Below, piece by piece: positions 32,676 to 47,009 of a DNA stretch of 64,000 nucleotides. How positions within the stretch are numbered: position 1 is the stretch's first letter; every line of letters begins with the position of its first letter. The position numbers and the translations under genes are program-made. Origin of the DNA: a virus; the IMG/VR virus record IMGVR_UViG_3300027896_000002, positions 10,128 to 74,127 of that record; one strand, written 5' to 3'. Below the pieces are notes generated by a model. The model was not told the origin of the DNA, did not search any database, and saw only the letters and a program-made list of their open reading frames with translations.

Positions 32676-33371
32676 ATGAAAAAAGTTATTCGCTGGTCGG
32701 TAATAGGAATTTTAGTAGGTGTTTTTTCTCCGTATATAATCATAGCTATCTTGAACTTCGTCAACTCCTGGCTTAATAGCTGGAAATTTAATTGGTGAAG
32801 GAGATTAGAGAATGAAAAAGATTATCTATTGGTCAATAATAGTAATTTTGATAGTTGCTCTTTCTCCATTTATAATCTTGTTTATAGCTGGAGATTTAGT
32901 TGGCGAAGGTCTTTCAATGTTAAGTTAAAAGGATGTATAAAAATGGAAATCTATATTGGAATTTTTGGTTTAATTTTGGCTCTCCTTATTTGCTGGCTAA
33001 TTTGGCCGTAGGAGGTGAGTTTATGATTCCTTATATTGTGGTAGGTCTTTTAGTGATAGGTGTGATTTGGAGAAACTGGTAGGAGGTGAATCAGTATGTT
33101 GAAGTATTGGCTATGTCTTATTGCGATTGTAGGTCTGGTTATAGCGGGACTAATATTCAAGACCAAAACAGGTGGAGTGAATGTTATTTTCTTCTTTGCT
33201 TTGATAGCATTAGGTTGGGCATTTTTATTGCTTACAAACAGAAAATGGGAACGGGAGGAATAAATAATGTTACGAATCTTACATAACCAAAAAAGGTATC
33301 AGAGATTTAATCCATTTACACTCATTATGGTGTTGATAGTTATTGCAGTCACATATCTCTTATCAAAGTAA
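32676..33371 (+). other. Array of six tiny membrane-peptide ORFs (32676-32798, 32812-32928, 32943-33011, 33023-33082, 33096-33263, 33267-33371)
   Basis: Each has an ATG with an SD-like motif (GGAG/GGAGG or AAGGA) and a hydrophobic helix; translated by hand. Confidence 0.6.
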
Positions 33372-33390
33372 GAACTGAAAAGGAGGGAGT

Positions 33391-33813
33391 TTGATGGAAC
33401 GAATAATGAAATTTATTAAGATATTTCCATGGTGGTTTTGGATCTTGGTAATTGTAGGCTTGCTTTTTCTATGGCAGGCTTTTTCAGGATGGTCAATGTC
33501 TAAAAAATATTTCGATCTGGCCGTTCAGGGCCTTAAGACAGAAGAGTCTCAGGTCCTTAAAAATAAGGATGAATACATCAAGGCATGTGAGACAGAGATC
33601 AGAGATAAGCAGGTAGAGATCGATCAGATTAAGAAAGAGAAGGCAACGCTACAGATTGATAAAGTCAATTCGGCCGCTGAAGTTGTCCGGCTAAAAAGGA
33701 GCAACGATGACCTTAAAAGGCAGATTCGAGAAATCATTATTCCTGATGATCCTGATCGGATCATTGACGATCTGCGGAAACGCTTTCCCTCAATCCATAA
33801 GATTCAGCCTTGA
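33391..33813 (+). CDS. Putative i-spanin
   Basis: N-terminal TM plus coiled coil at end of lysis module. Confidence 0.55.
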   Translation: MMERIMKFIKIFPWWFWILVIVGLLFLWQAFSGWSMSKKYFDLAVQGLKTEESQVLKNKDEYIKACETEIRDKQVEIDQIKKEKATLQIDKVNSAAEVVRLKRSNDDLKRQIREIIIPDDPDRIIDDLRKRFPSIHKIQP

Positions 33814-34156
33814 GTTTCCTGATCTTAAGGAATGGGATAAGCAGACCCAGGAATATCCGCTTCAAAATAAATTGATTGAAGATCAGGCCAAGACAATTCA
33901 AGAGCTCGAAAAATCTCTCGCCATAGAGATAAAAACCAACGAGCTGAACCAGCGAGAGCTCAATTTAAAAGATCAGATCATTGGCTTAAAAGATCAGGAG
34001 ATAGCGGCAACAAACAGGGCCAACGCTCAGTTAAAAGATGTCACGGATCGAGCTATCAAGCTGGCTGAGATCTCAAAGCCAAAATCCAACTGGGAACTCC
34101 AGGGAATTCTCTCTGGGGTAGCATTGGCTGTTGGATATTTTCTTGGAAGAAGATAA
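33707..34156 (+). CDS. Putative spanin partner/coiled-coil membrane protein
   Basis: Overlaps upstream gene; signal-like N-terminus, coiled coil, C-terminal TM. Confidence 0.5.
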   Translation: MTLKGRFEKSLFLMILIGSLTICGNAFPQSIRFSLEFPDLKEWDKQTQEYPLQNKLIEDQAKTIQELEKSLAIEIKTNELNQRELNLKDQIIGLKDQEIAATNRANAQLKDVTDRAIKLAEISKPKSNWELQGILSGVALAVGYFLGRR

Positions 34157-34573
34157 TTATAAGTAATGACATTCCGCTATCAACGGGTGATCTTTCACTA
34201 GCATCGGGACGATCCAATTTAGGTTAGTAATTATATTTGGGGGTAAAGAATCAATAGAAAATATTTTGACCTCTTCATCAGTTATAGACCTTATGTCTCG
34301 CATAGAGCCAAAGGCGCGAAACACCCAGCACTTCCAGTCTTTACCATTCATCTTTAGGATTATCTCCCAACTTGAGATTTCTAACCCTGCCTCCTCCTTA
34401 AATTCACGGATCATTGCCTTAAGAGGGTCTTCCCCGATCATGACCTTTCCTCCAATCCCGTTGAACCTCCCACTCTGCCATTTTGGCCTATTCTTTTTTA
34501 TTAAGGCTACTGTAGTTTTATCCCCTGAAAAATAAAAACCCAAGACATACCATCTTATAGCAATATTTTTCAC
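34157..34573 (-). CDS. NUDIX hydrolase
   Basis: GGK...GE....AMIREFKEEAG Nudix box. Confidence 0.9.
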   Translation of the reverse strand: MKNIAIRWYVLGFYFSGDKTTVALIKKNRPKWQSGRFNGIGGKVMIGEDPLKAMIREFKEEAGLEISSWEIILKMNGKDWKCWVFRAFGSMRDIRSITDEEVKIFSIDSLPPNIITNLNWIVPMLVKDHPLIAECHYL

Positions 34574-34584
34574 AATGCACCTCC

Positions 34585-35145
34585 TTATTGGTTTTGAACC
34601 AGGACATATAGGTTAGCTAAATTTTCTAAGATTCTATTTTTATAGTGCCCGTCTTTTCCGCCTAGATATAGGTCAAGGGTTTTAGAAATATCTTCACTAC
34701 TCTGTTTGGAGCATTCATCTAGGATCAAAGATCCTGCCCTTATCGATGGTTTAACATCAAACAAATCTCTCCTGTTTTTTGCTATCCCCAACTTTAACAA
34801 GGCAACCTTGTGAGTATCATACATCACCTGAGTTAGGCCAATCGCCCCTTTGCTTGAAATGGCCGTGGGGACAAATTCGCTTTCGACAAAAGTTAAAGCC
34901 AGGACCAAAAGGGGCTTGTGAGTTTTAAGTGACTCTTGAACTATGGTCCTTGCCGTAAATTCAGAAATCCGGCTTGAATGGTCAAAGACCCATTTTGTCA
35001 GGGAGATTTGAACTATCTCATTTCTTAAGCGGTTGGTCTCTTCCTTCTTTGTCTCTGGTAAATTCATCATTTCTAATTGGTATAAAACCCAGATCCCAGT
35101 TCCTATTGCAGTAAGTAAAAGTATCCCAGCAATTAATTTTTTCAT
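34585..35145 (-). CDS. Membrane-anchored SLT lytic transglycosylase
   Basis: VESEF.PTAISSKGAIGLTQV, Y.GG; N-terminal TM. Confidence 0.85.
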   Translation of the reverse strand: MKKLIAGILLLTAIGTGIWVLYQLEMMNLPETKKEETNRLRNEIVQISLTKWVFDHSSRISEFTARTIVQESLKTHKPLLVLALTFVESEFVPTAISSKGAIGLTQVMYDTHKVALLKLGIAKNRRDLFDVKPSIRAGSLILDECSKQSSEDISKTLDLYLGGKDGHYKNRILENLANLYVLVQNQ

Positions 35146-35165
35146 CTTTATTACCTCCCTTTATT

Positions 35166-35594
35166 TTATGCCCATGAAATAATTCTTTTGAATTGTGGCC
35201 AATCAATTGAATTATCCCAAACATGGGTTGCCACATCTTCCATCTGGGCCTTATTTAAGGTCCCAATAAGATAAATCTTTTTCCATGAAAAAATAAGATA
35301 GGTTCGTTCAATTCGAATTAAGAGCCAGCACCATCCACCATTATGGCCACGGTTTTGTAACCATGCTCGCTGTTGGTCAGTAAATCCTGGGACCTTAACA
35401 ATTGTCATTGGATTTTTTGGCCAAGCATCAAGAGACTTCAACTCAATCCAACCATTTATCTTATTGATTCCATATGAAACATCTGGCACCCCAGGTGAAA
35501 GTCGATCTTCATGTCGAGCAGCATCCCATGAGTTTCTCATTCCGCTTCGTAAGTATAGCCATAGAGACCTTTCTGCCATTATTTTGTCCCCCAA
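35166..35594 (-). CDS. PD-(D/E)xK nuclease (VRR-NUC/Holliday junction resolvase-like)
   Basis: PGVPD, GWIELK, QRAW. Confidence 0.8.
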   Translation of the reverse strand: MGDKIMAERSLWLYLRSGMRNSWDAARHEDRLSPGVPDVSYGINKINGWIELKSLDAWPKNPMTIVKVPGFTDQQRAWLQNRGHNGGWCWLLIRIERTYLIFSWKKIYLIGTLNKAQMEDVATHVWDNSIDWPQFKRIISWA

Positions 35595-37501
35595 TTCTCT
35601 ACAAGAGCATGGTCTATGATGATTGGGACCTTAAACTTGATCGTTGTTTCCATGATGTGGATCATTTCCTTAAAGGCCTCTTTTCCCTCTTTCGTCTTTG
35701 GCACAGAAGAAATTAGTTCATCATGAACGGTAAGATGTGGAATTAAAATACCACACAGCCCTGCTTCCCAAATATCAACCATGGCCTTTTTTATAAGGTC
35801 AGCGGCACTTCCCTGGATGATAGCGTTTAGGGCCCGATAGGTATAAGCTCGCTGTACCCCAGGACGTGGTGGAATTTCACCTTTGTCTAAGGCTTCCCAA
35901 ATTTTTTTATTAACTTGTTTAAGCATCAAGCTTTTATCTTCAATGGCATCAAGTTCCTTAGCTAAGGTGTAATCAACTGGAGCCCAGGTAATAAAGCGGC
36001 GCCGCCGGTTTAAAATTGTTTTAACATAGCCCTTTAAAAGAGCCGCGTTGGAAGCAGCCTCAAGGGTAGTTTTCATAAAAGGAATCTTTTCATTATATTC
36101 TTGAAGAAATTTTTCGGCTTCAGTGTACGGAAGTCCCAACTGTCTGGCAAGTTTTCTAAGGCCCATGCCATAGATTAAACCAAAATTAATGTCTTTAGCC
36201 TTTCGCCTTTGCTCTGGTTTACCAATTGTATTTGCGCACCATTGGTGATAGTCAATTTTTGGATTTTCATTATACTCAGCCCTAAATTGATCTGACCCAA
36301 GCCCAATGGCATAATGGGCAAAGATCCGAAATTCAACCTGTGAGTAGTCGGCTTTTCCTAAATCACATCCTTTTTCAGGGATAAACATTGAACGACACAA
36401 TGGCCCCAGTTCTTCATCACGAGCTGGAATAAATTGCAAGTTTGGGTGAGAGCATGAAAAACGCCCAGTAACAGTTCCGTACTCATCTGATAGTAGTTGG
36501 TTGAAAAGACAATGAACTCGGCCATTGATAAGCTGGTCTTTAATCGAGCCTTTCAAAAAGGTTCCAATAAATTTATCAAGGGTACGGCACGCGGTGATTA
36601 ACTTAGGCAACGGATGCTCATGGGCCCTTAACCATTCCTTAACAAAAGAAGGCTTTTTAGTCTTAGCGGTCAGAGGATATTCAACTTTAAATTTGTCAAA
36701 GGCCTTGGCAATATCCTCCGCTGCCTGATAATTAATTTTAAAGCCTACAAGCTTTTTTAATTCAGCGTAGGTTCGTTTTAGACGTTTATTATATTCAATG
36801 ATAGCGTGATTTAACTTAGTTTCATCAATCCGAATACCAATGCGTCTCATCTGTAAAAGTAGCGGGGAAAGCCTAGTCTCAAGCAAGAAAAGGTCCCATA
36901 GCTCTTCGGCCTTTAAAATTGACGCCTGCTTCTTAAAGATTTTAATTGGCAGCCTGACGTCTTGCTTCGCGTAGCAGGTGACTTTTTCAAAGGGAATTTT
37001 CCAAAGGTATTTTTGAACCTTGCCCTTCCACCCACGCTCAAGGCAATAGGCCTCAAGCTCAGTTTCTTCCTTAGTTTCACCTAAATACTTTTTAGCGAGG
37101 GCTCCAAGATTATAGTTGCCAGCGTTGTTCTCATCAAGCAAGGGCTCGGCAATTTGCACATCATACCAAGGTCCTTTTACCTGAACACCTTGCTCGGCTA
37201 AAAAATCAAAATCATATAGAAGGTTAGTCCCAAGCTTTATCTGTGAAACTCGACTAAGTTCTTTTTTAAGCCATGAAAAAACAGCCTTCTTGTTAAGGTT
37301 AGGGCCCCAATCATGGGCGATAGGGTAATATTCACAAAAATCATGGTCAGCGGCAATTGAGACGCCAATGATGTAAGCATCTCGACGAACCCCAGGTCCT
37401 TTTTCTACAAGGTCATCATCTCTGGTCTCAACGTCAATGCTAATGACCTTGGCTCTTGAAAGGTCAGGAAAACTATCTGGTAAATGGTAAAGGTCAGGCA
37501 T
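35579..37501 (-). CDS. polA: Family A DNA polymerase with 3'-5' exonuclease domain
   Basis: DVET exo I, TGRFS...PNLQ, DYSQVEFR, RRKAK.INFG..YG, IQGSAAD, TVHDE. Confidence 0.96.
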   Translation of the reverse strand: MPDLYHLPDSFPDLSRAKVISIDVETRDDDLVEKGPGVRRDAYIIGVSIAADHDFCEYYPIAHDWGPNLNKKAVFSWLKKELSRVSQIKLGTNLLYDFDFLAEQGVQVKGPWYDVQIAEPLLDENNAGNYNLGALAKKYLGETKEETELEAYCLERGWKGKVQKYLWKIPFEKVTCYAKQDVRLPIKIFKKQASILKAEELWDLFLLETRLSPLLLQMRRIGIRIDETKLNHAIIEYNKRLKRTYAELKKLVGFKINYQAAEDIAKAFDKFKVEYPLTAKTKKPSFVKEWLRAHEHPLPKLITACRTLDKFIGTFLKGSIKDQLINGRVHCLFNQLLSDEYGTVTGRFSCSHPNLQFIPARDEELGPLCRSMFIPEKGCDLGKADYSQVEFRIFAHYAIGLGSDQFRAEYNENPKIDYHQWCANTIGKPEQRRKAKDINFGLIYGMGLRKLARQLGLPYTEAEKFLQEYNEKIPFMKTTLEAASNAALLKGYVKTILNRRRRFITWAPVDYTLAKELDAIEDKSLMLKQVNKKIWEALDKGEIPPRPGVQRAYTYRALNAIIQGSAADLIKKAMVDIWEAGLCGILIPHLTVHDELISSVPKTKEGKEAFKEMIHIMETTIKFKVPIIIDHALVENWGTK

Positions 37502-37718
37502 AGCTACCTCATGGCTTCATACCCTGGGTCATTCAGGATCATCCAGGATCATTTTCTTTGGTTAGGTATATATCTTCCTATTAGGGCCCCTTAAAAAGAG
37601 GCTTAAAACATGTCCTCGGGAGCATAAATCTAATCATTTAGGACCATTCAGAATCAACTTTGATCATAAGTACATAACCTTCTATAGGTCTTATGGGATA
37701 ACACCTTAAGACCATGTC

Positions 37719-38225
37719 CTATGCTTCATAGGATAGTACTTTTTCATGGAGGATAGACCATTTGACTCCTAACTCAGAGAACAGTTGCTTTGACCTTTCA
37801 GAACTCTGATAGTCATAGGTGGCCTTAACCTCAACGATACCTACGTTCACGATGGCCTTAGCGCAGTCATAACACGGAAAAATTTTACAGTATAAAATTG
37901 CTCCTTCTACCGTGGGGCCATAGCGAGCCGCTTGTAGAATAGCATTAAGCTCCGCGTGCAAAGTCCTGGCACAATTTTTTGTTTCAATTTGCATATCATT
38001 TGACCAGTATTTTCTTGATTCGATCTCATGTCCAGCCTCATCACAGTGAGGTGCCCCCATTGGAGAGCCAACATGCCCAGTGGCAATGATCCGGCCTTGT
38101 TTCACGATGACTGCCCCAGCCATCCCTCGGTCACAGGTGCCACGCAAAGTAATCGCCTCAACTACGGCTCGATAGTATTCATCCCTTGAAATTCGGCTCA
38201 TAGTTTCTCCTTTCCTGCTAACCAA
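37719..38225 (-). CDS. dCMP deaminase
   Basis: HAELNA and PCYDC zinc motifs. Confidence 0.92.
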   Translation of the reverse strand: MVSRKGETMSRISRDEYYRAVVEAITLRGTCDRGMAGAVIVKQGRIIATGHVGSPMGAPHCDEAGHEIESRKYWSNDMQIETKNCARTLHAELNAILQAARYGPTVEGAILYCKIFPCYDCAKAIVNVGIVEVKATYDYQSSERSKQLFSELGVKWSILHEKVLSYEA

Positions 38226-39070
38226 TTTAATTTCTGTTTTAATAATGGGTCCTTGATCAAGTCAATAAAGCCATCAATCACTGGTAAATACTCTAGCTTA
38301 TTGGCCCGGATAAATTCATCCGTCATCTCAACATTTCGAAGCTCATAGTCAAGTTCAATGCCGCTTTTCAACGTCGAAAGAGGAGTGAACTGACTGTTAG
38401 GGATTAAGTTATGGCTTAAGATCTCATTGACCTTATCATAATGCTCTTGATAAACGTGAAAGCTGCCTTGGATCAGCCGAAATTCTCCTGGCTCAAGCTC
38501 CAAGATGGAGGCAAGAATTAGCTGGAGACAGGTAAAATTATGCACGTCGTAAGGAAACCCGAGCCAGGCATCTTGGCTTCGCATGTAGACGTTAAGATTC
38601 AAGCGCTCAAGGGGCCGGCGGATAAATTGCATAGTGATGGTGCATGGCACGTCCTTGGTTACTGGTGGCTTTTCACGCCAGATAGTTAGGACCGCTTGCC
38701 TGGTCCATGGATCTTGTCGCAGGGCATTTTCAACGTATGATAATTGATCCATGATCTTGGGCCCATAGGCGCCAAAGAACGTGATCCCGTCGTCAGAGTA
38801 AGCTTTAACCTTCTTGCTATAAAAGCCAATCATCTCGACATCATCGCGCCCAAGCAAGATCCAAAGAAGCTCGGCAGCCATGAACCTCTTAGAGGCATTT
38901 CGCACTAAGTTAATGAGGATATTATTCTGGATATTATTAAGTATGGTGCAAAATGGGCTTAGCTCCAAGCACTGATAACCCCGAGGCATGGTTATATTTC
39001 CATAACTCATAAGGTATTCTAAAGCATCCAAGTACAAGGCGTCAATTGAGCTGTTTGAAATAACTAACAT
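38198..39070 (-). CDS. Thymidylate synthase superfamily enzyme, probably a dCMP (hydroxy)methyltransferase
   Basis: TRQA, DVPC catalytic Cys, MRSQDAWLGFPYD with Asp at the ThyA Asn177 position. Confidence 0.8.
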   Translation of the reverse strand: MLVISNSSIDALYLDALEYLMSYGNITMPRGYQCLELSPFCTILNNIQNNILINLVRNASKRFMAAELLWILLGRDDVEMIGFYSKKVKAYSDDGITFFGAYGPKIMDQLSYVENALRQDPWTRQAVLTIWREKPPVTKDVPCTITMQFIRRPLERLNLNVYMRSQDAWLGFPYDVHNFTCLQLILASILELEPGEFRLIQGSFHVYQEHYDKVNEILSHNLIPNSQFTPLSTLKSGIELDYELRNVEMTDEFIRANKLEYLPVIDGFIDLIKDPLLKQKLNWLAGKEKL

Positions 39071-39996
39071 GGGTTTTCTCCTTTCATCGCGGCCTTTAAA
39101 AACTTCACATAGGCCTTAGGTTCATGGGCATGGAAGCGGTGCCAATATTGCGGGTGGGGAATTGTCTGGTGCTTGACTCCAAGGTTTAAAAGCTTTTGAT
39201 GGGCATAGGTACCTAAACCTATCCAAGTTGTATTTTCAAGGTTTAAAAAGTTAACTTCACCTTTAGTCAAGTTAATGGCATTGCAAAGATAAACTAAATC
39301 CTCGGGAACATTTGCTTCTTTGAATCGCTCATAAAGATAACTACTTGCCGGCCCATTGTCAAATGGCAACCCAAGCCAAGTTATTTTCATATTTAGCCTA
39401 TCGCCCACGAACACGACCTTTTCACCATAAATAGTTCCTACCCCTGAACAACAGTTCATAGCTAAGATAGCATGGCTCCTAAGCGGAAGAAGCAATCGTT
39501 CAAGGTGTAAGAGCAAGTCAGCTAGCGCTGTTTCCTTGGTGGCATCATAAAAAAGCAAGGGCCAAAGGTTACAGGAATGGATTAATGTTTTAAACCGAAC
39601 CCAAGCCCTTTGATTATCTTTCAATGAGATCTTCTCATTGGCTAAATTATCATTAAGCCGAGCTTGACAAACTTTGAGCGGGGTCGAGGCATAGATAAAG
39701 ATTGCCCCCTTAAGTCGACAGATGCGCTCGATCACGGCATATTGCAGGTCGCTTATCTTTGAGGCTCCCCGCAGCAGTGGGCCATAAACTCGCTCCCCAA
39801 AATAAGACCGGTCACACACGGTCGGGTAAGAGATGCCTTCAAAAAATGAAGCGTACTCTGACGCTGGGTCATTTCCCGGGGCACTAAAGTGAGCATATTG
39901 ATAATGAAATCGCTCCTCAATCTTTTTTGCCAGGGTAGTTTTTCCTGACTTATCTGGGCCTTCAATGATGATCAACATGACAGGGTCTCCTTTCAA
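39064..39996 (-). CDS. dNMP kinase fused to a UDG-like domain
   Basis: EGPDKSGKTT, CDRS...E.VYG; C-terminal VVFVGD, LG..A, HP motifs. Confidence 0.75.
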   Translation of the reverse strand: MKGDPVMLIIIEGPDKSGKTTLAKKIEERFHYQYAHFSAPGNDPASEYASFFEGISYPTVCDRSYFGERVYGPLLRGASKISDLQYAVIERICRLKGAIFIYASTPLKVCQARLNDNLANEKISLKDNQRAWVRFKTLIHSCNLWPLLFYDATKETALADLLLHLERLLLPLRSHAILAMNCCSGVGTIYGEKVVFVGDRLNMKITWLGLPFDNGPASSYLYERFKEANVPEDLVYLCNAINLTKGEVNFLNLENTTWIGLGTYAHQKLLNLGVKHQTIPHPQYWHRFHAHEPKAYVKFLKAAMKGENPC

Positions 39997-40015
39997 TTCA
40001 ATGGACGTTAAATTC

Positions 40016-40792
40016 TTAATGCCTATGGGGCTTATAGCTTAAGATTGGCTTTTGGCAAAGCCAAACGTTATTGCGGCTTTCATCTGGGTGCAAAGGCGCT
40101 AGGAAACAAGCCATAACATCATGGCTATAATAAGCAAGCAACTCGTCATAAATCTCTCGTTCATGGATACTAAGCGCTGATAAAAAGGATTTTTGATGTG
40201 AGGCGAAGGTGCCAAAACGACCAGTGATCATAAACCCAGTTTCTACGAGCGCTTTTTGAAGCTCAATGATCATCCACTCATGCACATGGTTGCGGGCTGC
40301 CTTGCCGTCAAAGACGGGGGTTGAAAGGATAATCAACCCATCTTGAGCACAGCACTCAAATAACCCACGTAATAAGCATAGACCATTTTCCCTGGTCATG
40401 TGCTCAATTACTTCATAGCAGACCACCACGTCAAATTGCCCATAGAGTTTAATTAACTCTTGGTATCGTTTTACAAAATTAAATTCTGAGTGCCAGTGAG
40501 CCCATTGCCTGATACCTACCTCAGGCAACTTGTTAAGATCTACCCCTACATATAACTTGGGCACTGAACTTTTACTGGCCGTTAAGACATTCATCAATGG
40601 CTTATCCTGCCCACACCCCACGTCTAAGATCTTTGATTTTGGATTAATAAATCGTCTTGTAAAACCCCAGCGAAAAAAGTGGGCGGCATAATCTCGATGT
40701 ACATATTTCCCATGTTGAGCTTCTCGAAGTTGGGTCTGATCAAATTCTCTTTCCTCTCTGACCTTATTTGGATTTCTTATTTCTTGTTTCAT
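40016..40792 (-). CDS. Class I SAM-dependent methyltransferase
   Basis: ILDVGCG, FDVVVCYEVIEH, ILSTP. Confidence 0.9.
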   Translation of the reverse strand: MKQEIRNPNKVREEREFDQTQLREAQHGKYVHRDYAAHFFRWGFTRRFINPKSKILDVGCGQDKPLMNVLTASKSSVPKLYVGVDLNKLPEVGIRQWAHWHSEFNFVKRYQELIKLYGQFDVVVCYEVIEHMTRENGLCLLRGLFECCAQDGLIILSTPVFDGKAARNHVHEWMIIELQKALVETGFMITGRFGTFASHQKSFLSALSIHEREIYDELLAYYSHDVMACFLAPLHPDESRNNVWLCQKPILSYKPHRH

Positions 40793-41139
40793 TAGTACCC
40801 CCTATCTTGGCGTGCTTGATTTTCCGCCATTTTATTTTCATAGGCCTCAAAGATCATTTCAGCATTCATCCCCCACATGATCATAAGTTCCATGGTAAAG
40901 TGAAAGATGTCAATTAGCTCGGTCTGAAGCAAGTCAAAGTTTACTGGCTTAACGGTTCGCTTCCATGGCTTCCAATTGATCTCGTCCCCAGCCTCACCCA
41001 ATTCACAACAGATGGCAAATAATAGGTCTTTAGTTTGCTCTTGGATGAGGGCGTCATTTTTCTTGTCCTCTAAAACTTGTACTCCAAGCCGTTGCATCAA
41101 GGCCTTTTGCATCTCAACTATTTGGCTTAACTTATCCAT
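40792..41139 (-). CDS. Dimeric (all-alpha) dUTPase/dCTPase
   Basis: E..E, WKPWK, ELIDIFHF, K...N..RQ..GY. Confidence 0.88.
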   Translation of the reverse strand: MDKLSQIVEMQKALMQRLGVQVLEDKKNDALIQEQTKDLLFAICCELGEAGDEINWKPWKRTVKPVNFDLLQTELIDIFHFTMELMIMWGMNAEMIFEAYENKMAENQARQDRGY

Positions 41140-41148
41140 TGTTTTATT

Positions 41149-41373
41149 TTACCTCCTTTTCAAAGCAATAAGTTTTTCTACGAGTTTCTCAGTAAACTTT
41201 TGGCGTTTTTCTACCTTATCGAGTGGAAACCACTCCTGTACCCCCTTCCATTTTCCAGGTATTTTTAAATTAGTTACCTTATAACGTAAAAAATGAGCCT
41301 CGACATTTAGTCGAAGGTTAGTCCCGTCCTTATTCTGAGTAGCCCGAATGACAATTATTTGATTATCTCTCAT
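41149..41373 (-). CDS. Hypothetical protein
   Basis: ORF with GGAGG SD. Confidence 0.6.
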   Translation of the reverse strand: MRDNQIIVIRATQNKDGTNLRLNVEAHFLRYKVTNLKIPGKWKGVQEWFPLDKVEKRQKFTEKLVEKLIALKRR

Positions 41374-41413
41374 TTGAATTTACCTCCCTTTATCCAATAG
41401 GTTTAGAAACAGC

Positions 41414-41447
41414 AAAAGGGCTTGAGAAATAAATCCCAAGCCCTTTT
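41414..41447. terminator. Intrinsic terminator-like hairpin
   Basis: AAAAGGGCTTG/CAAGCCCTTTT. Confidence 0.6.
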
Positions 41448-41455
41448 CATTTTGA

Positions 41456-42304
41456 TCATTTGACAAGGCTGTATGTCTCGGTCTTCTTATCATAGTCGGT
41501 GACCAAAAGTTCCTTGGTCCGCTTCGGGTTTTTAAAGATGCTCATGGCACACATCAGGTTGGCCTTGTCAAAGCCAGATCGTTTCATCAAGTCCTTTAAT
41601 GACCAGTTCTTTTTCTCAATGAAAGCAGCCCTGATCTTTCCCATCTTAGAATTTGGGTTTAACTTAAACCCCCTGGCCTTGCCAGATTTTGCTTTTCCCT
41701 TGGCTTTATCTCCCTTGTAATAAGCGCAATCAGCCACGCACTTATTCTTGGGCTTAGCCTGACGCTTTTCGCAGCCGCCAAAGGGGATCCGCTTTTGTTC
41801 CCCGGCGCAATGGATCATTTCGTTTGGCTTTGGGACATCAGCGTCTAGGGTATTTAACCGTTCGATCGCGGTTTTTCGGTCCGTGAACTTATAGACCTTT
41901 TTCCCAGTCCGCTTGTTAAATAGATCAACAAGCTCTTTCATGGTGAGTTGCTCGTACCCCTTTGCTTCTGGCTGTGCTTCCTGCTTCTTGTCGCCAACCA
42001 TCTTTTTATTGGCGTTCGAAATTTCCTCAAGCTCTTTTTTAGTAGATTCTTTTGTCATGGTCTCCTCCGGTTTTTTCACGCACGAGGCGTGGGCCGCGAC
42101 GAACGGCTCAGTTGATTGAACGATAAAGTTATGGCCTATCCTAATTTGGCCATGGCACTCGGAACAAGGAGTGTTCCGGTGTGCTACTTCTGCCTCTAAG
42201 TCCCAAACTTTTACTTGCGTCTCTGCCATTGTCTCCTCCTTTTTTTGTTCAAAGTGACTACCCCAGGGGGCAAAATATTTAGCATCTAACTTTTGCTTTT
42301 TCAT
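41456..42304 (-). CDS. Basic DNA-binding-like protein with internal in-frame starts (42229 and 42058)
   Basis: Lys-rich, winged-HTH-like C-terminus; two internal GGAGGAGAC-ATG leaders. Confidence 0.55.
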   Translation of the reverse strand: MKKQKLDAKYFAPWGSHFEQKKEETMAETQVKVWDLEAEVAHRNTPCSECHGQIRIGHNFIVQSTEPFVAAHASCVKKPEETMTKESTKKELEEISNANKKMVGDKKQEAQPEAKGYEQLTMKELVDLFNKRTGKKVYKFTDRKTAIERLNTLDADVPKPNEMIHCAGEQKRIPFGGCEKRQAKPKNKCVADCAYYKGDKAKGKAKSGKARGFKLNPNSKMGKIRAAFIEKKNWSLKDLMKRSGFDKANLMCAMSIFKNPKRTKELLVTDYDKKTETYSLVK

Positions 42305-42513
42305 CTTTCAACATTTCTCCCATTATGTTCAGAGATGCCTATAAAATTTTTATTGCGTGAATACCATTCCTTCCCATAGGTGCATTTAAGCCAGTTAATG
42401 ACCGTTGGTTTTCCCCTCGGTCTCTTAGGATCTGTCCTTCGTTCTGGCATCTCTGCAAGGACTGAAATCTCATGGGTCTTAGGGTCATAGAGCGTAATTT
42501 TATAGGTTGTCAT
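42301..42513 (-). CDS. Hypothetical protein
   Basis: ORF with GGAGG SD. Confidence 0.6.
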   Translation of the reverse strand: MTTYKITLYDPKTHEISVLAEMPERRTDPKRPRGKPTVINWLKCTYGKEWYSRNKNFIGISEHNGRNVER

Positions 42514-42530
42514 TTTAACCTACCTCCTTT

Positions 42531-43415
42531 TCAAGCCGCCCGTTTTTGCTTGGCCATTTCTTCCATCAAGTGCCACAAGCCACGGTTGACCCGAATATTT
42601 TCGGTAATGCCAGTGATGCCAGGGACCTTTTCCTTATGGACCAAGTGGCCATTTGGGGTTGTGTGCACGGTTCTTTCAAAGCGATTTCCCTTGGTCATTT
42701 TTTCTTGGATCCGATTAAAAATGTTCCAAATGGTTGGGGCCTCATCACTGACGCGAAGGGGCTTTAAAAGAGCTGGGACATCAAAGGTTCGGTCATCAAC
42801 GTGAAAATTAAAACCCTCGCTTGAGGTCTTTGAATCATCCTTGGCATATTTAAGAAGTAAAGTTGACTCGGCAAAGATGATTTGCTCAACGGGCTTGAGC
42901 TCAATTGCCTGATAGGATGAAATCTTCTTTGCAAGTTTAGGAACTTCCTCAATCACCTTATAGCTGGCTTCAATTACTTCTTTTTGCTCTTGCCCAAGAT
43001 GCATGACGTTGATCTGACCAAAGCTGCCCTCACTTACGATCAAGCCATTTAAGCAAGCCAGCTTAAAAAAGCCTGCCATGATTGAGTACCTGGTTGTCCT
43101 ATCATGAGCATTAGTCAAAATTAATTCAGGAGCCAAGTCTCCAACCTTATCAAGGTAGGTGCCCTCTTGCCGAAAACGAACCATATGTTTCTGATAACCC
43201 AACCGATTTTCCTTTAAGACCCGTTGCTCTTGCGCTTTTACCGGATACCAGTTATGATCGCAAAGGCCATCAATCACGTCCATGGTTGAATAAAACCGGT
43301 ACTTAGCGCTTGCCGTAGAAATTGGCTTAGTTTGAATGATGCTTCGAAGCGCCGCTAATTGTTCAAGGGAAATAAAACTTTTGCCATCGCCAATAGTAGT
43401 AATTCTGGTTGTCAT
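42531..43415 (-). CDS. DUF932/DUF945 family protein
   Basis: KHMVRFR, PELILTNAHD, GFF.LACLNG, W..FN..QE. Confidence 0.85.
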   Translation of the reverse strand: MTTRITTIGDGKSFISLEQLAALRSIIQTKPISTASAKYRFYSTMDVIDGLCDHNWYPVKAQEQRVLKENRLGYQKHMVRFRQEGTYLDKVGDLAPELILTNAHDRTTRYSIMAGFFKLACLNGLIVSEGSFGQINVMHLGQEQKEVIEASYKVIEEVPKLAKKISSYQAIELKPVEQIIFAESTLLLKYAKDDSKTSSEGFNFHVDDRTFDVPALLKPLRVSDEAPTIWNIFNRIQEKMTKGNRFERTVHTTPNGHLVHKEKVPGITGITENIRVNRGLWHLMEEMAKQKRAA

Positions 43416-43453
43416 AGGTCTCCTCCTTTTTTAAGTTATTCTGGATGGTTTAA

Positions 43454-43810
43454 TCACCACCCATACCGTTTAAAGGGAAAGGCAAATTCATTAATTGCCC
43501 TCTGCTTCTTTTCATCCATCTTATAGTAAAGGTTAATCACTGTCAACAACATTTCCTTTCCATCTTTTCCCCAGCCCCTCCATTGAACATGGGTTTTAAG
43601 GCAATCAGCATCAGTCACTGCTTCAATTACCTCTGCCCTTGAAATAGTTTTTCTACTTCCATGGCCAATCATAGCCTCTAACCAATCAGAGCCAATTTCC
43701 TGCCATGTTGAACTCATCGCCGAGCTTAATGCCTTTACCTGCTCACTTGTTAGGCCTGTTGCCTTGACCACTTTCGCCAATTCTTTTTCATAAATTTCTT
43801 TTGACATCAT
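43454..43810 (-). CDS. Hypothetical early protein
   Basis: Start placed after the conserved leader (ORF track extends to 43843). Confidence 0.6.
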   Translation of the reverse strand: MMSKEIYEKELAKVVKATGLTSEQVKALSSAMSSTWQEIGSDWLEAMIGHGSRKTISRAEVIEAVTDADCLKTHVQWRGWGKDGKEMLLTVINLYYKMDEKKQRAINEFAFPFKRYGW

Positions 43811-43839
43811 CTTGGTCTCCTCCTTTTGAATTTTATTTT

Positions 43840-43905
43840 GCACTCTTCCTCCCTTAACTTATAAAGCGCCGGCGGGCCTATCATTAGATAAGCCCACCCC
43901 AGGGA
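43840..43905 (-). ncRNA. Candidate pseudoknot RNA motif, copy 1
   Basis: UCCCU/AGGGA; 12-bp hairpin; GCGCUUU/AGAGUGC; conserved GGCG-N6-AAGUUAAGGG. Confidence 0.5.
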
Positions 43906-43906
43906 C

Positions 43907-44101
43907 CTACTTCCTGATGAAGGCGCCGGTCGTTCCCTTTGCAAATTTTCTAATCGCGCTCACGACGCTGGTCAAATCCTTCGGGTCGATTCGCATCGTG
44001 CCAAGAGATGCCTTTCGGTCAGTGGTAAGAAGCATCACGCCAAGGGTCCCACCGTTCTTTTTAATGGCCTTCTTTGCTGGCTTTTTTGCCATGGTCCTCA
44101 C
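43907..44101 (-). CDS. Small basic hypothetical protein
   Basis: ORF with SD. Confidence 0.55.
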   Translation of the reverse strand: MRTMAKKPAKKAIKKNGGTLGVMLLTTDRKASLGTMRIDPKDLTSVVSAIRKFAKGTTGAFIRK

Positions 44102-44134
44102 CTCCTTTCATGGAAAATTTTTACTAATAAAAAA

Positions 44135-44320
44135 TCAACGTAAGTCTATTCTCTCTTTCATTCGGCAATAAATAGGATTCCCAGACCTATCTATAAGTTT
44201 TGGGCTTAAAATGATATGGCATTTTGGACAGGTCAAAGTCTCCCACTTTTTTATCTCCTCTCCCATTGCCATAAATTCATCTCCACATACTGTGCAATAT
44301 AGCATTAAACCCTTTTCCAT
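44135..44320 (-). CDS. Small zinc-ribbon protein
   Basis: CxxC...CxxC. Confidence 0.55.
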   Translation of the reverse strand: MEKGLMLYCTVCGDEFMAMGEEIKKWETLTCPKCHIILSPKLIDRSGNPIYCRMKERIDLR

Positions 44321-44337
44321 TATTTTATTCTCCTTTC

Positions 44338-45105
44338 TTAATGGCCAATTACCCGTTGACCTTGACCTGGGTTATGGCGAAGGGCATTAGCCCTAAGGGA
44401 AACCTCGTTGGCCATTTGCTCACCTCGTCGTTGGCCCTCACTGTTGTGCCGAAACTGGTTTAACCTGTTAGCAGACCTAAGCCCCTTAAGATTTTTCATC
44501 CAATCATTTACCTCAGTCAAGGCCCGATCTAACCTAACCAAGGCGGTGGAGCCAGTAGGAGCTGCTGCGTTTCGCTCGGCATCAAACCGTTTGCTTAGAC
44601 CAAGGACAAAACCATAAAGCCAAGCACTTCGAAAGCCACGAGCTTCAGTCACATCACCATTGTCGCGGCATTCGTAAAAGTACTTGACATATTCCTTCTC
44701 GGCCATCTTCTCCGCAAGCTTATACATGGTTACAAAAAGATATTCGGCAATCTCACGGTCGCTTTTATGCCCAACTAAGCAGATATGATTTGAGCCAACG
44801 GAAATTAAGATCTTACAGAAATGGGCCTTAGCAATGATGCTGGCTAATTGCTCAGACCATTGCTGACGGGCCTTTTTTGAAGTAATTCCTTGAGTTTCAA
44901 AGTCAACCCATACCTTACAAATGGGGTCGGTATCTTCTCTCTTGTCCCAATCAACTTCAGACATAGAAAGATTGTGCTTGAGCAGCAGCTGATTAACCAT
45001 TCCAGCAAAGGCCTCGGCCTCTTCTTGGCTACCAATTTTCTCACATGATTCTGCCTTTGCATGAAGCTTTCGAATCTTGTCAATTACTTTTTCCTCGGTT
45101 GTCAT
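44338..45105 (-). CDS. DUF2786 domain protein
   Basis: KIRKL.AKA....EAE.F......LL.KHNL; F..GF. Confidence 0.8.
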   Translation of the reverse strand: MTTEEKVIDKIRKLHAKAESCEKIGSQEEAEAFAGMVNQLLLKHNLSMSEVDWDKREDTDPICKVWVDFETQGITSKKARQQWSEQLASIIAKAHFCKILISVGSNHICLVGHKSDREIAEYLFVTMYKLAEKMAEKEYVKYFYECRDNGDVTEARGFRSAWLYGFVLGLSKRFDAERNAAAPTGSTALVRLDRALTEVNDWMKNLKGLRSANRLNQFRHNSEGQRRGEQMANEVSLRANALRHNPGQGQRVIGH

Positions 45106-45134
45106 GGTGGTCTCCTCCTTTTAGATTTTATTTT

Positions 45135-45190
45135 GTTACCTACCTGGGATTAAACCCAGGTTTCGGCCATTTAGGCCTCATCAGGGCAAC
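45135..45190 (-). ncRNA. Hammerhead ribozyme (type I), GUA cleavage
   Basis: GUUGCC-CUGAUGA-GGCC UAAAU GGCC-GAAA-CCUGGG UUUAAU CCCAGG-UA-GGUAAC. Confidence 0.93.
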
Positions 45191-45540
45191 TGAATTGAAA
45201 TTTCAAGGCCATCTTTAAAACTTTGAATTGTGAGTGGAATTTCCTTAATCCGTAAAATCTTTGAAAGGTTTTTTCCTTGCAGGTCAGTCAATGGTTCTTT
45301 AAAATACAGGTGCAATAAAGCCCGTTTATAGGAAAAAGGCTTTGTTTCCATGAAGGAATTGTTAAAATACATCTGAGACCTGACAACCTCAATGCCCCTT
45401 CGTTTAAGGATTGGAAACACTGTTGTTATATGCTTATCAGCCAAGTCACTTAAAAGCTTGCAGTTTTTTTCTGCTAAATCTGCCTCAAGTAAAAGTTCTT
45501 GAACTTCCATCTCAATTCGTTCCTTATTAATCTTTTCCAT
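45181..45540 (-). CDS. Hypothetical early protein
   Basis: Conserved leader; stop is the first UGA of a hammerhead core. Confidence 0.65.
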   Translation of the reverse strand: MEKINKERIEMEVQELLLEADLAEKNCKLLSDLADKHITTVFPILKRRGIEVVRSQMYFNNSFMETKPFSYKRALLHLYFKEPLTDLQGKNLSKILRIKEIPLTIQSFKDGLEISIQLP

Positions 45541-45570
45541 GGTCTCCTCCTTTTGAATTTTATTTTATAG

Positions 45571-45756
45571 TTAACAATCAAATTTACTTTCAACCTTAAA
45601 CTTCTTGATCGCTTCATTCAGATAACTTTTCTCAATCTGCTTTCCCGCTGAAACAAGAATCGCATAATCGAGGTCACATCCCTTTAATGTGATCATCAGG
45701 GCTAATTTTAATTGGGCTGGCGTCATTTGCATTATGATGCTTTCTAAATTTTCCAT
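45571..45756 (-). CDS. Hypothetical early protein
   Basis: Conserved leader. Confidence 0.6.
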   Translation of the reverse strand: MENLESIIMQMTPAQLKLALMITLKGCDLDYAILVSAGKQIEKSYLNEAIKKFKVESKFDC

Positions 45757-45782
45757 AGTCTCCTCCTTTTGAATTTTATTTT

Positions 45783-45838
45783 ACCACCGACCCGAGATTA
45801 ATCTCGGGTTTCGACCATTGAGGTCTCATCAGGATGAT
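45783..45838 (-). ncRNA. Hammerhead ribozyme (type I), GUC cleavage
   Basis: AUCAUC-CUGAUGA-GACC UCAAU GGUC-GAAA-CCCGAG AUUAAU CUCGGG-UC-GGUGGU. Confidence 0.94.
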
Positions 45839-46215
45839 TTTCTTGCCTGAAATGTTTCTCCTCTTTTCTCGATGATTGCCCCTAATTGAAAAGCCGCTGC
45901 CATATCTATTAGATCTTGTACCTCCTCTTTAGCAAGTTTAACGGCTCTGGCAACACTCATCTTCCAATTTTTAATGTAATGATCTCGAAGTTGAAAGAGT
46001 AAAGTTTCTTCAAGAACTGGAAGCTCTACCACTTTCATCGTGGTGGTAGATTTATTGCACTCAACTCCCGCCATTGACCGTCGGCATCCACAGCTTCCAT
46101 CCACTGTCTCACCATCACACTCAAAGGAAAAATGAACAATCTCACCTTCCGGTACCCAGCAAAAATCATTTTTCCTTTGCCCCTGCATCTCTTTCGTTGC
46201 CACGATAATCTTCAT
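45829..46215 (-). CDS. Conserved Cys-containing hypothetical protein
   Basis: VAT..QG.R.NDF, C....CGC.R motif. Confidence 0.65.
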   Translation of the reverse strand: MKIIVATKEMQGQRKNDFCWVPEGEIVHFSFECDGETVDGSCGCRRSMAGVECNKSTTTMKVVELPVLEETLLFQLRDHYIKNWKMSVARAVKLAKEEVQDLIDMAAAFQLGAIIEKRGETFQARKSS

Positions 46216-46256
46216 AATCAGTCTCCTCCGTTTTGCCCATTGGGCGGTTAAAGGTT

Positions 46257-46403
46257 TTAATAAATTTCCCTGGCATTGATCGAATCAACTGTGATCTTTG
46301 CTGGCCCATTTTCCAAGGTCATTTTAATATACTCTTCGATCTGCCCGTCACCATCCATCTCACCATCATTGACTTCAATCTCCATTATAACTTTTATCTT
46401 CAT
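46257..46403 (-). CDS. Small acidic hypothetical protein (48 aa)
   Basis: ATG after conserved leader; not in ORF track. Confidence 0.6.
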   Translation of the reverse strand: MKIKVIMEIEVNDGEMDGDGQIEEYIKMTLENGPAKITVDSINAREIY

Positions 46404-46429
46404 GGTCTCCTCCTTTTTAATTTTATTCT

Positions 46430-46484
46430 ATCATCGACCCGAGTTAAACTCGGGTTTCGACCATTTAGGTCTCATCAGGATGAT
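46430..46484 (-). ncRNA. Hammerhead ribozyme (type I), GUC cleavage
   Basis: AUCAUC-CUGAUGA-GACC UAAAU GGUC-GAAA-CCCGAG UUUAA CUCGGG-UC-GAUGAU. Confidence 0.95.
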
Positions 46485-46500
46485 TTTTATATTTTTCTCA

Positions 46501-46779
46501 TTAGATTACTCTTACGATAGAAAGATAAGGTGTCGTATCCTGCTCCAATTTCCATCGCATCCTATCAACTATCAAATTAAGATCCATTCTGTGCGTGAAG
46601 TCTTGCTCCTCACCGTGCTCAAAATTAATGGTCACGATGAACTCCGTCTTCTCCTCGTCCTGCATATTGCTGTGAGAAGAAGAGACTCTCGACTTTGGAA
46701 AAAAAGATGCTGCCACTCTATAAAGACTGTTCATCTCGTTCCATGCTACTGCTCTTTTTTCCTGAATTTTTTTATTCAT
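46501..46779 (-). CDS. Hypothetical early protein
   Basis: Conserved leader. Confidence 0.6.
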   Translation of the reverse strand: MNKKIQEKRAVAWNEMNSLYRVAASFFPKSRVSSSHSNMQDEEKTEFIVTINFEHGEEQDFTHRMDLNLIVDRMRWKLEQDTTPYLSIVRVI

Positions 46780-46814
46780 TTTGGTCTCCTCCTTTTAAAA
46801 TTTGAATTTAAAAT

Positions 46815-47009
46815 TTAAGGCAATACAACAATTTCCAAAGCACCAGGAAAATTTCTTTTTATCTCTTTTAGAGCACTGGTAAAAAATCCATATCTCATTT
46901 CTCTAAAAGCCTGGCCGTTAGAATATTTAATATTAAACCACCATTGACCTTTTCCTTTTGGTTCTTTTCCATGGCTAAAAAAATATTCATTCTTATTTAT
47001 TGCTTTCAT
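46815..47009 (-). CDS. Hypothetical early protein
   Basis: Conserved leader; SHGK.PKG.G.W.F motif. Confidence 0.65.
   Translation of the reverse strand: MKAINKNEYFFSHGKEPKGKGQWWFNIKYSNGQAFREMRYGFFTSALKEIKRNFPGALEIVVLP

Follow-up and report, generated by a model that had tools for sequence, protein, structure and literature searches.

Cytosine replacement is among the principal means by which phages evade restriction and certain CRISPR systems, and modified bases have become tools, as in the use of T4 glucosyltransferase for mapping 5-hydroxymethylcytosine (5hmC) and of deaminases selective for 5-methylcytosine (5mC) in methylation sequencing. In the T-even 5hmC pathway, gp56 serves as dCTPase/dUTPase, gp42 as dCMP hydroxymethylase, gp1 as dNMP kinase and cd as dCMP deaminase. 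We analysed 64,000 nucleotides of an uncultured freshwater phage (the window; IMG/VR record IMGVR_UViG_3300027896_000002) that encode a like set of predicted activities with the same logic and with the DCTDD active-site signature of gp42. Unlike in the T-even phages, the thymidylate synthase (TS)-fold enzyme of the window belongs to a separate lineage that is only distantly related to gp42, the polymerase is of family A, and a TMPK/YorR-like kinase carries a fused UDG-like domain; the window also has a class I methyltransferase, has no gp42-adjacent glucosyltransferases and gathers its genes in one compact, coupled operon. We conclude that this tightly coupled gene set very probably replaces the cytosine of the phage DNA by 5hmC; chemical measurements exist neither for the window phage nor for other carriers of the cassette, and nothing is chemically proven. 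Our overall reading, a T4-type pre-replicative cytosine-replacement module in a Pam3-like freshwater siphovirus, including tailoring by the methyltransferase, is held with moderate confidence.

Other described systems share parts of this arrangement. The CMP hydroxymethylase MilA (mildiomycin; PDB 5b6d, 5jnh), which is the closest solved relative of the window TS-fold enzyme (E 8e-20), also has Asp143, Asp177 and Thr147 (PMC13326640), but it acts on a ribonucleotide in a Streptomyces antibiotic pathway and belongs to no phage DNA module. Phages of the XP12/PaMx74 type likewise encode an Asp177 TS followed by a deaminase, near an NTP pyrophosphatase and PolA, whereas in those phages the enzymes have the signature NCPDD and fall with ThyA, PaMx74 has a DHFR, and both the methyltransferase and the kinase::UDG gene are missing. 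The pathway to 5-carbamoyloxymethylcytosine (MetaGPA; PMC8670742) is likewise built from a hydroxymethylase and a single small tailoring enzyme, for which capping of the hydroxyl is proposed; that enzyme is a carbamoyltransferase there and a SAM methyltransferase, with an unidentified product, here. Finally, a parallel is offered by SPO1-like, SP15-like and N4-like phages with PolA::UDG (PMC13697223), in which a family-4-type UDG domain accompanies PolA in modified-pyrimidine genomes, but the UDG-like domain of the window is fused to a dNMP kinase instead of the polymerase.

The TS-fold enzyme, predicted to be a dCMP hydroxymethylase (5hmdCMP synthase), is encoded at 38198..39070 on the minus strand (290 aa) and matched Pfam Thymidylat_synt (PF00303) with an E value of 1.8e-25 (90 bits, cut-off 24.3). 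The original prediction had described it as a ThyA homologue with an Asp that aligns with E. coli ThyA and T4 gp42. We located the motif concerned, RSQDAWLGFPYD, in this ORF, and MAFFT, run with the two references taken from annotated records, reproduced both reference strings quoted in that prediction and placed the final Asp of the motif in one column with E. coli ThyA N177 and T4 gp42 D179. HMMER alignments to MilA and ThyA structures agreed on this placement. The Asp177 column was invariant in 117/117 database homologues and in 72/72 relatives linked to the methyltransferase and is thus not a chance feature. The catalytic Cys and the residues that bind phosphate and substrate in the TS-fold family were conserved as well (C146, R21, E58, Y94, R126, R166, S167, D169, H207 and Y209).

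Five positions then distinguish the known activities. The window enzyme reads D143, C146, T147, D169 and D177 (DCTDD; E. coli numbering), identical to T4 gp42, at positions where ThyA reads LCHDN, the 5mC-type enzymes of PaMx74 and Bosa NCPDD, SPO1 gp29 DCNDN and RB69 gp48 ECTND. All 117 homologues carried DCTDD, as did 71 of the 72 methyltransferase-linked enzymes, the remaining one being DCHDD. According to published rules, N177D denotes dCMP, an acidic residue at 143 hydroxymethylation and D169N a 5-hydroxy product (PMC13326640), and the position-143 rule is a correlation from few characterised enzymes. With Asp177, an acidic residue at 143 and Asp169, the window enzyme has the sequence features of a gp42-type dCMP hydroxymethylase, the conversion itself being inferred. 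Because its signature is that of T4 gp42, unlike NCPDD (PaMx74 and Bosa) or ECTND (RB69), we predict 5hmdCMP as the product and consider 5mC unlikely. A 5-hydroxy-dCMP synthase of the RB69 gp48 type was rejected, since the window enzyme keeps Asp169 where RB69 gp48 has Asn.

Both databases and the AXL3 and PW916 papers annotate thymidylate synthase and thymidylate kinase, and the cassette of these two cultured phages is accordingly described as ordinary thymidylate synthesis, in which the deaminase would supply dUMP, the TS dTMP and the kinase dTDP. This explanation is hard to sustain, and we give it hardly any weight: Asn177 is replaced by Asp without exception, AXL3 also has ThyX, and AXL3 DNA is restriction-resistant. 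In addition, the window enzyme departs from bona fide ThyA by N177D and by L143D, which leaves position 143 not hydrophobic, and it reached only 72 and 62 bits with the NCBIfam ThyA equivalog models, whose cut-offs are 327 and 108, respectively.

A quick tree grouped the 5mC enzymes with ThyA, apart from the clade of the window enzyme (SH-aLRT 93). XP12 was represented in it by PaMx74 and the XP12-like Bosa, and MilA was not included. The window enzyme did not group with T4 gp42, which has a very long branch, as do RB69 gp48, ThyA and SPO1 gp29; given these long branches, the tree shows only the separation from the ThyA/5mC clade and not kinship with gp42. The tree also bears on a 5mC genome of the XP12/PaMx74 type, in which the TS would be a dCMP methylase and the deaminase would turn 5-methyl-dC into thymidine nucleotides. 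Such a genome would suit the neighbourhood of TS, deaminase, NTP pyrophosphatase and PolA, which is like that of 5mC phages, and the window phage, in which we found neither a thymidylate synthase of its own nor ThyX. We nevertheless judge it improbable, and reject a methylase assignment, since the enzyme has D143/T147 (DCTDD) where PaMx74 and Bosa have N/P (NCPDD), the 5mC enzymes lie with ThyA in a separate clade, and no DHFR was found in the window phage, whereas PaMx74 has one beside its TS. The original prediction had allowed 5mC, 5hmC or a derivative; D143/T147 and the absence of DHFR narrow this to 5hmC as the favoured primary product, with 5mC unlikely.

We next consider the genes around the TS-fold enzyme. 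A dNMP kinase, an all-alpha dUTPase/dCTPase, a dCMP deaminase and a SAM methyltransferase had been named as its neighbours, and each was matched by profile searches. The MazG-like all-alpha NTP pyrophosphatase, a predicted dCTPase/dUTPase (40792..41139, minus strand; 115 aa), belongs to Pfam dUTPase_2 (PF08761; E 1e-14, 55.6 bits, above the family cut-off of 22.9) and also matches PHROG NTP pyrophosphohydrolase families. By analogy with T4 gp56, it is predicted to make dCMP and to keep dCTP out of DNA, a preference for dCTP being assumed. The dCMP deaminase (37719..38201, minus strand; 160 aa from the ATG at 38201) matched PF00383 (E 2.6e-19) and a PHROG family (E 6e-32) and lies directly downstream of the TS in 65/80 related loci. 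In tblastn it retrieved generic dCMP deaminase relatives only, which do not indicate the substrate; we predict that it diverts dCMP to dUMP for dTMP synthesis by the host. The adjacency to PolA likewise stood: a family A DNA polymerase with a 3'-5' exonuclease (35579..37501, minus strand; PF00476 E 5.8e-68, PF01612 E 7e-8) lies beside the cassette, as it does in many related loci, and is inferred to build modified dCTP into the DNA.

The cassette genes are translationally coupled through successive junctions. The pyrophosphatase stop and the methyltransferase start share TAATG, the next junction is a 37-nt spacer in which a Shine-Dalgarno site lies, the TS start overlaps the kinase stop in ATGTTAG, and the deaminase start overlaps the TS stop in ATGA, with AAGGAG upstream. 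The most likely start codons are the ATG at 39978 for the kinase, preceded by AAAGGAG, and the ATG at 38201 for the deaminase, each in preference to an upstream TTG.

This gene set is very common and extends to cultured phages. The TS subfamily is encoded in at least 579 IMG/VR stretches and the methyltransferase in at least 194, hundreds of viral contigs carry the cassette, and all five genes are also present in Stenotrophomonas phage AXL3. Of 37 enzymes, only TasI and Tru1I cut AXL3 DNA, which resisted 35/35 tested enzymes with G/C in their sites (PMC7504290). A neighbourhood of TS, deaminase, pyrophosphatase and PolA has moreover been linked to contigs with modified cytosine (70% vs 6%; MetaGPA; bioRxiv 2024.12.05.627091). 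The T4-like logic for replacing dC that was originally proposed is therefore supported by the active-site signature, by translational coupling, by conservation of the cassette and by the restriction-resistant DNA of AXL3.

The class I SAM methyltransferase (40016..40792, minus strand; 258 aa), predicted to tailor the 5-hydroxymethyl group, matched Pfam Methyltransf_23 (E 3.7e-10) and was modelled as a single domain (pLDDT 92.5) with a generic small-molecule fold. Foldseek and VIA-align gave Z scores of 16-18, tied among CmoM, UbiG, ChlM and HEN1, and with so long a list of tied class I enzymes fold searches cannot name the substrate. Profile searches matched UbiG (1.8e-9) and HENMT1 (2.2e-7). 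E127, E130, H131 and H169 are invariant and align with the metal ligands of HENMT1 (PMC10781085); UbiG has ExxEH too, which leaves a HEN1-like metal site as no more than a lead, and the score against bacterial Hen1 was only 18 bits (cut-off 340). A DNA N6/N4 or C5 methyltransferase was rejected, as the 258-aa single-domain protein had only small-molecule-type Pfam matches and none to PF00145 or N6_N4. The family is restricted to viruses (atlas clusters 95-100% viral), and its only tblastn matches were in AXL3, PW916 and two Manatee Spring phages, each of them also a top TS match.

What this enzyme modifies was approached through linkage. Among 80 IMG/VR loci retrieved with the methyltransferase, 72 had a TS within 10 kb, and all 72 were of the dCMP type (71 DCTDD, 1 DCHDD); conversely, 60/80 loci retrieved with the TS had the methyltransferase. 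The 20 without it, together with Pelagibacter phage HTVC200P, indicate that the TS pathway works without this step, and they fit a plain 5hmC genome in which the methyltransferase has an RNA, a protein or a small metabolite as its target and owes its linkage to the cassette to early expression alone. Such a genome is equally compatible with the fold and profile searches, which led to generic methyltransferases of small molecules or RNA and gave no hint of a substrate. The exclusive association with dCMP-type TS speaks against it, as do the restriction of the enzyme to viruses, its translational coupling inside a nucleotide operon and its replacement by other SAM enzymes, Dcm-like or radical-SAM, which occupy the same slot in loci without it. 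We therefore regard plain 5hmC as unlikely, though still a serious alternative to tailoring by the methyltransferase.

On the tailoring reading, the methyltransferase, whose product is unknown, may turn 5hmC into an undescribed derivative. The methylated hmC of the original prediction agrees with the strict linkage between methyltransferase family and TS type and remains an inference. O-methylation of the hydroxymethyl group is only a tentative assignment; the enzyme could instead act on N4 or another atom, or on a target that is not a nucleotide. Equally tentative, and not something we would assert, is that cytosine is wholly replaced by a methylated 5hmC derivative, likeliest 5-methoxymethylcytosine from a virus-only UbiG/HEN1-like O-methyltransferase, in this phage and in the phages that carry the cassette, AXL3 and PW916 included. 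In the literature searched we found nothing relevant on a methoxymethylcytosine DNA base or on a methyltransferase acting on 5hmdCMP. If the enzyme does methyl-cap 5hmC, its product would add a natural base to those known in DNA and offer a minimal alternative to glycosylation, with consequences for Stenotrophomonas phage therapy candidates, type IV restriction, glycosylase defences and environmental virome sequencing.

Glycosylation itself has to be weighed, since hydroxylated cytosines in phage DNA are well known to be glycosylated (PMC13326640) and the window contains a glycan island (3919-12396) that encodes several glycosyltransferases and sugar-nucleotide tailoring enzymes. These could glycosylate 5hmC after its synthesis, as in T4, without excluding a role for the methyltransferase. 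The island, however, lies 26 kb off inside a late structural operon and has no matches to T4-type DNA glucosyltransferase families, and we think its involvement improbable.

The gene between methyltransferase and TS encodes the kinase-fused UDG-like domain that had been predicted (39064-39978, minus strand), and Pfam matches of homologues (PF02223 and PF03167), a profile search and a structure model (pLDDT 95.9, both folds matched) all confirmed the fusion. Its N-terminal P-loop dNMP kinase domain (39469..39978) is thymidylate-kinase-like: residues 2-159 matched YorR (2axp; 1e-16) and also thymidylate kinases, Foldseek gave a TM score of 0.78 to 2axp, and G12, K13, D56 and R57, which belong to the P-loop (EGxDxxGK(T/S)T) and the DR motif of such kinases, were invariant in 44 homologues. 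As its PF02223 and TIGR00041 scores fall under the cut-offs, we class the domain, on profile evidence, as a divergent thymidylate-kinase-like member, and we predict that it phosphorylates modified dCMP. The C-terminal family-4 UDG-like domain (39064..39468) matched family-4 UDG and UdgX over residues 176-253 (about 1e-7) and 1l9g in Foldseek (E 4.5e-5). It keeps the acidic residue of motif A (GE.PG), the stacking Phe, an Asn and the His-Pro of motif B (HPS), and the PG of motif A is replaced. In 38/80 related loci it is fused to the kinase. Its role is unknown and any activity is inferred; it might remove uracil or connect the protein with the polymerase. We found no description of a kinase::UDG fusion in the literature searched, and we consider it a second lead, one to how the supply of nucleotides and the control of uracil are tied to replication.

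The folds, the active-site signature, gene coupling and co-occurrence are observations, and every substrate and product in the following scheme is inferred from them. The MazG-like pyrophosphatase would convert dCTP to dCMP, from which the TS-fold enzyme, with methylene-tetrahydrofolate, would form 5-hydroxymethyl-dCMP; Asp177 would select cytosine, and Asp143 would permit water to attack the exocyclic methylene intermediate, replacing hydride transfer. The kinase domain may then phosphorylate the modified nucleotide, with a host NDP kinase completing the triphosphate, and the adjacent PolA would incorporate it, so that C is replaced genome-wide. The deaminase is proposed to shunt some dCMP to dUMP for host thymidylate synthesis. 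We consider this course from pyrophosphatase through TS-fold enzyme and kinase to PolA, with its deaminase shunt, to be probable. The virus-only methyltransferase would further modify the hydroxymethyl group, putatively by O-methylation to 5-methoxymethylcytosine; its small size and its lack of motifs of DNA methyltransferases make the nucleotide its probable substrate. Finally, the UDG-like domain might remove uracil, the odds of whose entry the deaminase would raise, or tether the kinase to the polymerase.

In the window phage, the palindromes GATC, GGCC, GCGC, CGCG and TCGA were not avoided, which supports modified DNA only weakly; CTAG (O/E 0.27) and CCGG (O/E 0.59) were under-represented, and the latter runs counter to this. 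Megablast against 50,697 phage records returned no near relative of the 5-kb region, and Rfam gave no match at the gathering threshold in 33000-48000. Upstream of the cassette, a scan for terminator-like structures detected a 14-bp stem-loop (41414..41447, minus strand), which might act as a terminator or processing site at the beginning of the unit.

The parent IMG/VR record (74,127 bp, of which the window covers 10128–74127) is rated complete by CheckV. Its proteins resembling Pam3 gp33 and gp34, its HK97-type capsid and its origin in a freshwater metagenome indicate an uncultured siphovirus of fresh water. Megablast of a 5-kb region against 50,697 phage records found no close relative at the DNA level. 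Structural genes occupy the plus strand up to ~33 kb and replication and early genes the minus strand, on which the neighbours listed in the original prediction are all present. In order of transcription, these minus-strand genes encode a dUTPase_2/MazG-like pyrophosphatase (115 amino acids; 40792–41139), a class I SAM methyltransferase (258 amino acids; 40016–40792), a kinase fused to a UDG-like domain (kinase::UDG, 304 amino acids; 39064–39978), a thymidylate-synthase-fold protein (290 amino acids; 38198–39070) and a dCMP deaminase (37719–38201), followed after a 217-nt gap by the family A polymerase PolA (35579–37501). The five cassette genes are translationally coupled, as their junctions show: TAATG between pyrophosphatase and methyltransferase, a 37-nt spacer carrying AAAGGAG between methyltransferase and kinase, ATGTTAG between kinase and thymidylate synthase (TS) homologue, and ATGA, with AAGGAG upstream, between TS homologue and deaminase.

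The TS homologue had been proposed to be an Asp-type relative of ThyA, and this was borne out. The protein contains RSQDAWLGFPYD, and when it was aligned with E. coli ThyA and T4 gp42 from annotated records, the final Asp of this string lined up with ThyA Asn177 and gp42 Asp179. HMMER alignments to solved structures, among which the CMP 5-hydroxymethylase MilA was the best relative, gave the same placement. In TS-fold enzymes, Cys146 (E. coli numbering) is catalytic, Asn or Asp at residue 177 specifies dUMP or dCMP as the substrate, respectively, residue 143 is hydrophobic with methyl products and acidic with hydroxymethyl products, and replacement of Asp169 by Asn marks flavin-dependent 5-hydroxy-dCMP synthases (PMC13326640, 2026); position 147 was added to this diagnostic set by MetaGPA work (PMC8670742). 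We read positions 143/146/147/169/177 in a single alignment with fetched reference enzymes and obtained L-C-H-D-N for E. coli ThyA, D-C-T-D-D for T4 gp42 (5hmdCMP), D-C-N-D-N for SPO1 gp29 (5hmdUMP), E-C-T-N-D for RB69 gp48 (5-hydroxy-dCMP) and N-C-P-D-D for PaMx74 and the XP12-like Xanthomonas phage Bosa (5mC type). The window enzyme reads D-C-T-D-D, as does every one of the 117 database homologues that are 230 amino acids or longer. Its signature therefore agrees with those of the two characterised cytosine hydroxymethylases, which predicts a hydroxymethylase, and is unlike those of the 5mC-type and 5-hydroxy-type enzymes.

To the extent that sequence alone can decide, ordinary thymidylate synthesis is ruled out, and the enzyme scored far under each NCBIfam ThyA equivalog cut-off. 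We found no second TS, ThyX or DHFR in this phage. An enzyme that oxidises tetrahydrofolate would be expected to have a DHFR nearby, and PaMx74 keeps one next to its methylase, whereas the window phage lacks one. In a quick maximum-likelihood tree, the window enzyme fell in a large clade separate from the PaMx74 and Bosa enzymes, which grouped with ThyA (T4 gp42 and RB69 gp48 could not be placed owing to their long branches). The signature, the tree placement and the missing DHFR thus all run contrary to an XP12-like 5mC genome, which we disfavour. The proposal that this module modifies cytosine, which had allowed for 5mC, 5hmC or a derivative, is therefore supported and narrowed to a 5hmC-based pathway, the core steps of which we consider likely. 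We note a C-terminal extension of ~60 residues (about residues 225–290; window 38198–38400) in the window enzyme and its closest relatives; in the alignment it is missing from gp28 of Stenotrophomonas phage AXL3 and from T4 gp42, and nothing in ThyA corresponds to it.

These five genes also occur, with their order almost unchanged, in AXL3, in its relative PW916 and in two complete Manatee Spring virome genomes, one from a siphovirus and the other from a podovirus. AXL3 virion DNA is cut by only 2 of 37 restriction enzymes, TasI (AATT) and Tru1I (TTAA), and none of the 35 whose recognition site includes G or C cut it; its authors concluded that G/C bases are altered, left the modification unidentified and annotated the cassette as thymidylate synthesis although ThyX is also present (PMC7504290). 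Published annotations of AXL3 gp27–gp31 and of PW916 name dTMP synthesis or a deoxyuridylate hydroxymethyltransferase; going by the Asp177 signature, which indicates dCMP as the substrate, these are probably wrong. In MetaGPA screens, 70% of the dCMP deaminases on modified-cytosine contigs have a TS homologue within 3 kb, compared with 6% of those on unmodified contigs, and pyrophosphatase and PolA domains are the other common neighbours (bioRxiv 2024.12.05.627091). The window shares this neighbourhood of deaminase, TS homologue, pyrophosphatase and PolA. The module is a variation on an already known kind of cytosine-modification system and, because cultured phages carry it, can be tested at once.

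We surveyed IMG/VR from two seeds, fetching 80 loci for each. The methyltransferase seed gave at least 194 confirmed stretches, and a TS homologue lay within 10 kb of the methyltransferase in 72 of the 80 loci, usually 1–3 kb downstream on the same strand; in four of the remaining eight, the contig runs on for no more than about 650 bases downstream of it. The signature of these TS homologues was D-C-T-D-D in 71 of 72 and D-C-H-D-D in one. Seeding with the TS subfamily (at least 579 stretches) recovered a methyltransferase in 60 of 80 loci, a kinase in 59, a deaminase in 65, PolA in 59 and the kinase::UDG fusion in 38. Ten methyltransferase-free loci were sampled. In four of them the same upstream slot was occupied by a Dcm-like PF00145 protein, in another by a radical SAM/SPASM enzyme and in a further one by a stand-alone UDG. 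The PF00145 and radical SAM/SPASM enzymes lie just upstream of the kinase and TS (L125:7906–9048, L137:7847–9244, L151:5201–6421, L157:8161–9273 and L142:1826–2827, named by locus), and since the neighbouring enzyme already fills C5, a C5-methylase fold here suggests a different, unknown chemistry. The TS can therefore exist without the methyltransferase, and Pelagibacter phage HTVC200P is another such case; the methyltransferase, by contrast, is hardly ever seen without a D-C-T-D-D-type TS. This one-sided co-occurrence is what would be expected if the methyltransferase decorates the TS product. It remains possible that the genome contains plain 5hmC and that the methyltransferase is unrelated to it.

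The methyltransferase family comprises 692 proteins (E ≤ 1e-5), almost wholly viral. Across 45 sequences, 27 columns are invariant, including an N-terminal R/D/T...RDY..H...W block, the GCG SAM motif and E127, E130, H131, N168, H169 and E172. The confident structural model (pLDDT 92.5) matched many class I small-molecule and RNA methyltransferases at tied scores, nominally led by CmoM, whose methylation target is the C5 side chain of a tRNA uridine, with UbiG, ChlM and HEN1 close behind. Family profiles matched UbiG (1.8e-9) and human HENMT1 (2.2e-7), although scores fell far under the NCBIfam UbiG and Hen1 cut-offs. ExxEH, which UbiG also has, and H169 align with E132, E135, H136 and H181, the metal ligands of HENMT1 (PMC10781085). 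No DNA-methyltransferase motifs or extra domain were found in the protein. We infer an O-methyltransferase that would act on 5hmdCMP or a later nucleotide form; both substrate and reaction are inferences. If this were true, the DNA would contain 5-methoxymethylcytosine, a base that no paper we found reports in phage DNA. A methylated 5hmC derivative is a plausible but unproven extension of the pathway, and we hold it only tentatively.

The kinase::UDG fusion has 55 full-length homologues, several with precomputed PF02223 and PF03167 matches. In an alignment of 44, the P-loop and DR motif of the N-terminal half are invariant, and the C-terminal half conserves an acidic residue after an invariant Gly, Pro-Phe, Asn and His-Pro-Gln. 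The first half of the very confident AlphaFold model (pLDDT 95.9) resembles YorR and thymidylate/deoxynucleoside kinases, and the second half a Thermotoga family-4 UDG; profile searches agreed (YorR, 1e-16; family-4 UDG or UdgX, about 1e-7). Phages are already known in which a UDG domain is fused to the family A polymerase; this domain is active in the SPO1-like and SP15-like groups, whose thymine is modified, but inactive in the N4-like group (PMC13697223). There the partner is a polymerase, whereas here it is a nucleotide kinase, a fusion described in no paper that we found. The UDG-like domain may remove uracil, which would be likelier to enter DNA given the phage-encoded deaminase, or may instead tether the kinase to the polymerase.

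Glycosylation of 5hmC could in principle be provided by an 8.5-kb glycan gene island (window 3919–12396) that encodes GT1-, GT2- and GT9-like glycosyltransferases, a PIG-L deacetylase, a hexapeptide acyltransferase and an NAD-dependent epimerase/dehydratase. The island lies in the late operon between the capsid and head–tail genes, far from the cytosine module, and its enzymes could act on virion proteins or, less probably, on the 5hmC of the DNA. Across the whole window, CTAG (observed/expected 0.27) and CCGG (0.59) are under-represented, and GATC, GGCC, GCGC, CGCG, TCGA and AGCT are at expectation; these statistics do not much help or harm any reading.

Immediately upstream of the cassette are two open reading frames (41149–41373, 74 amino acids; 41456–42304, 282 amino acids) without a Pfam, PHROG or NCBIfam match. 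Between them, a perfect 14-bp stem-loop (41414–41447, minus strand) may be a terminator or RNA processing site; no Rfam family matched window 33000–48000 at the gathering threshold. A NUDIX hydrolase (34157–34573) directly downstream of PolA and an HD-domain phosphohydrolase (53819–54391) farther along the early region could also act on the nucleotide pool.
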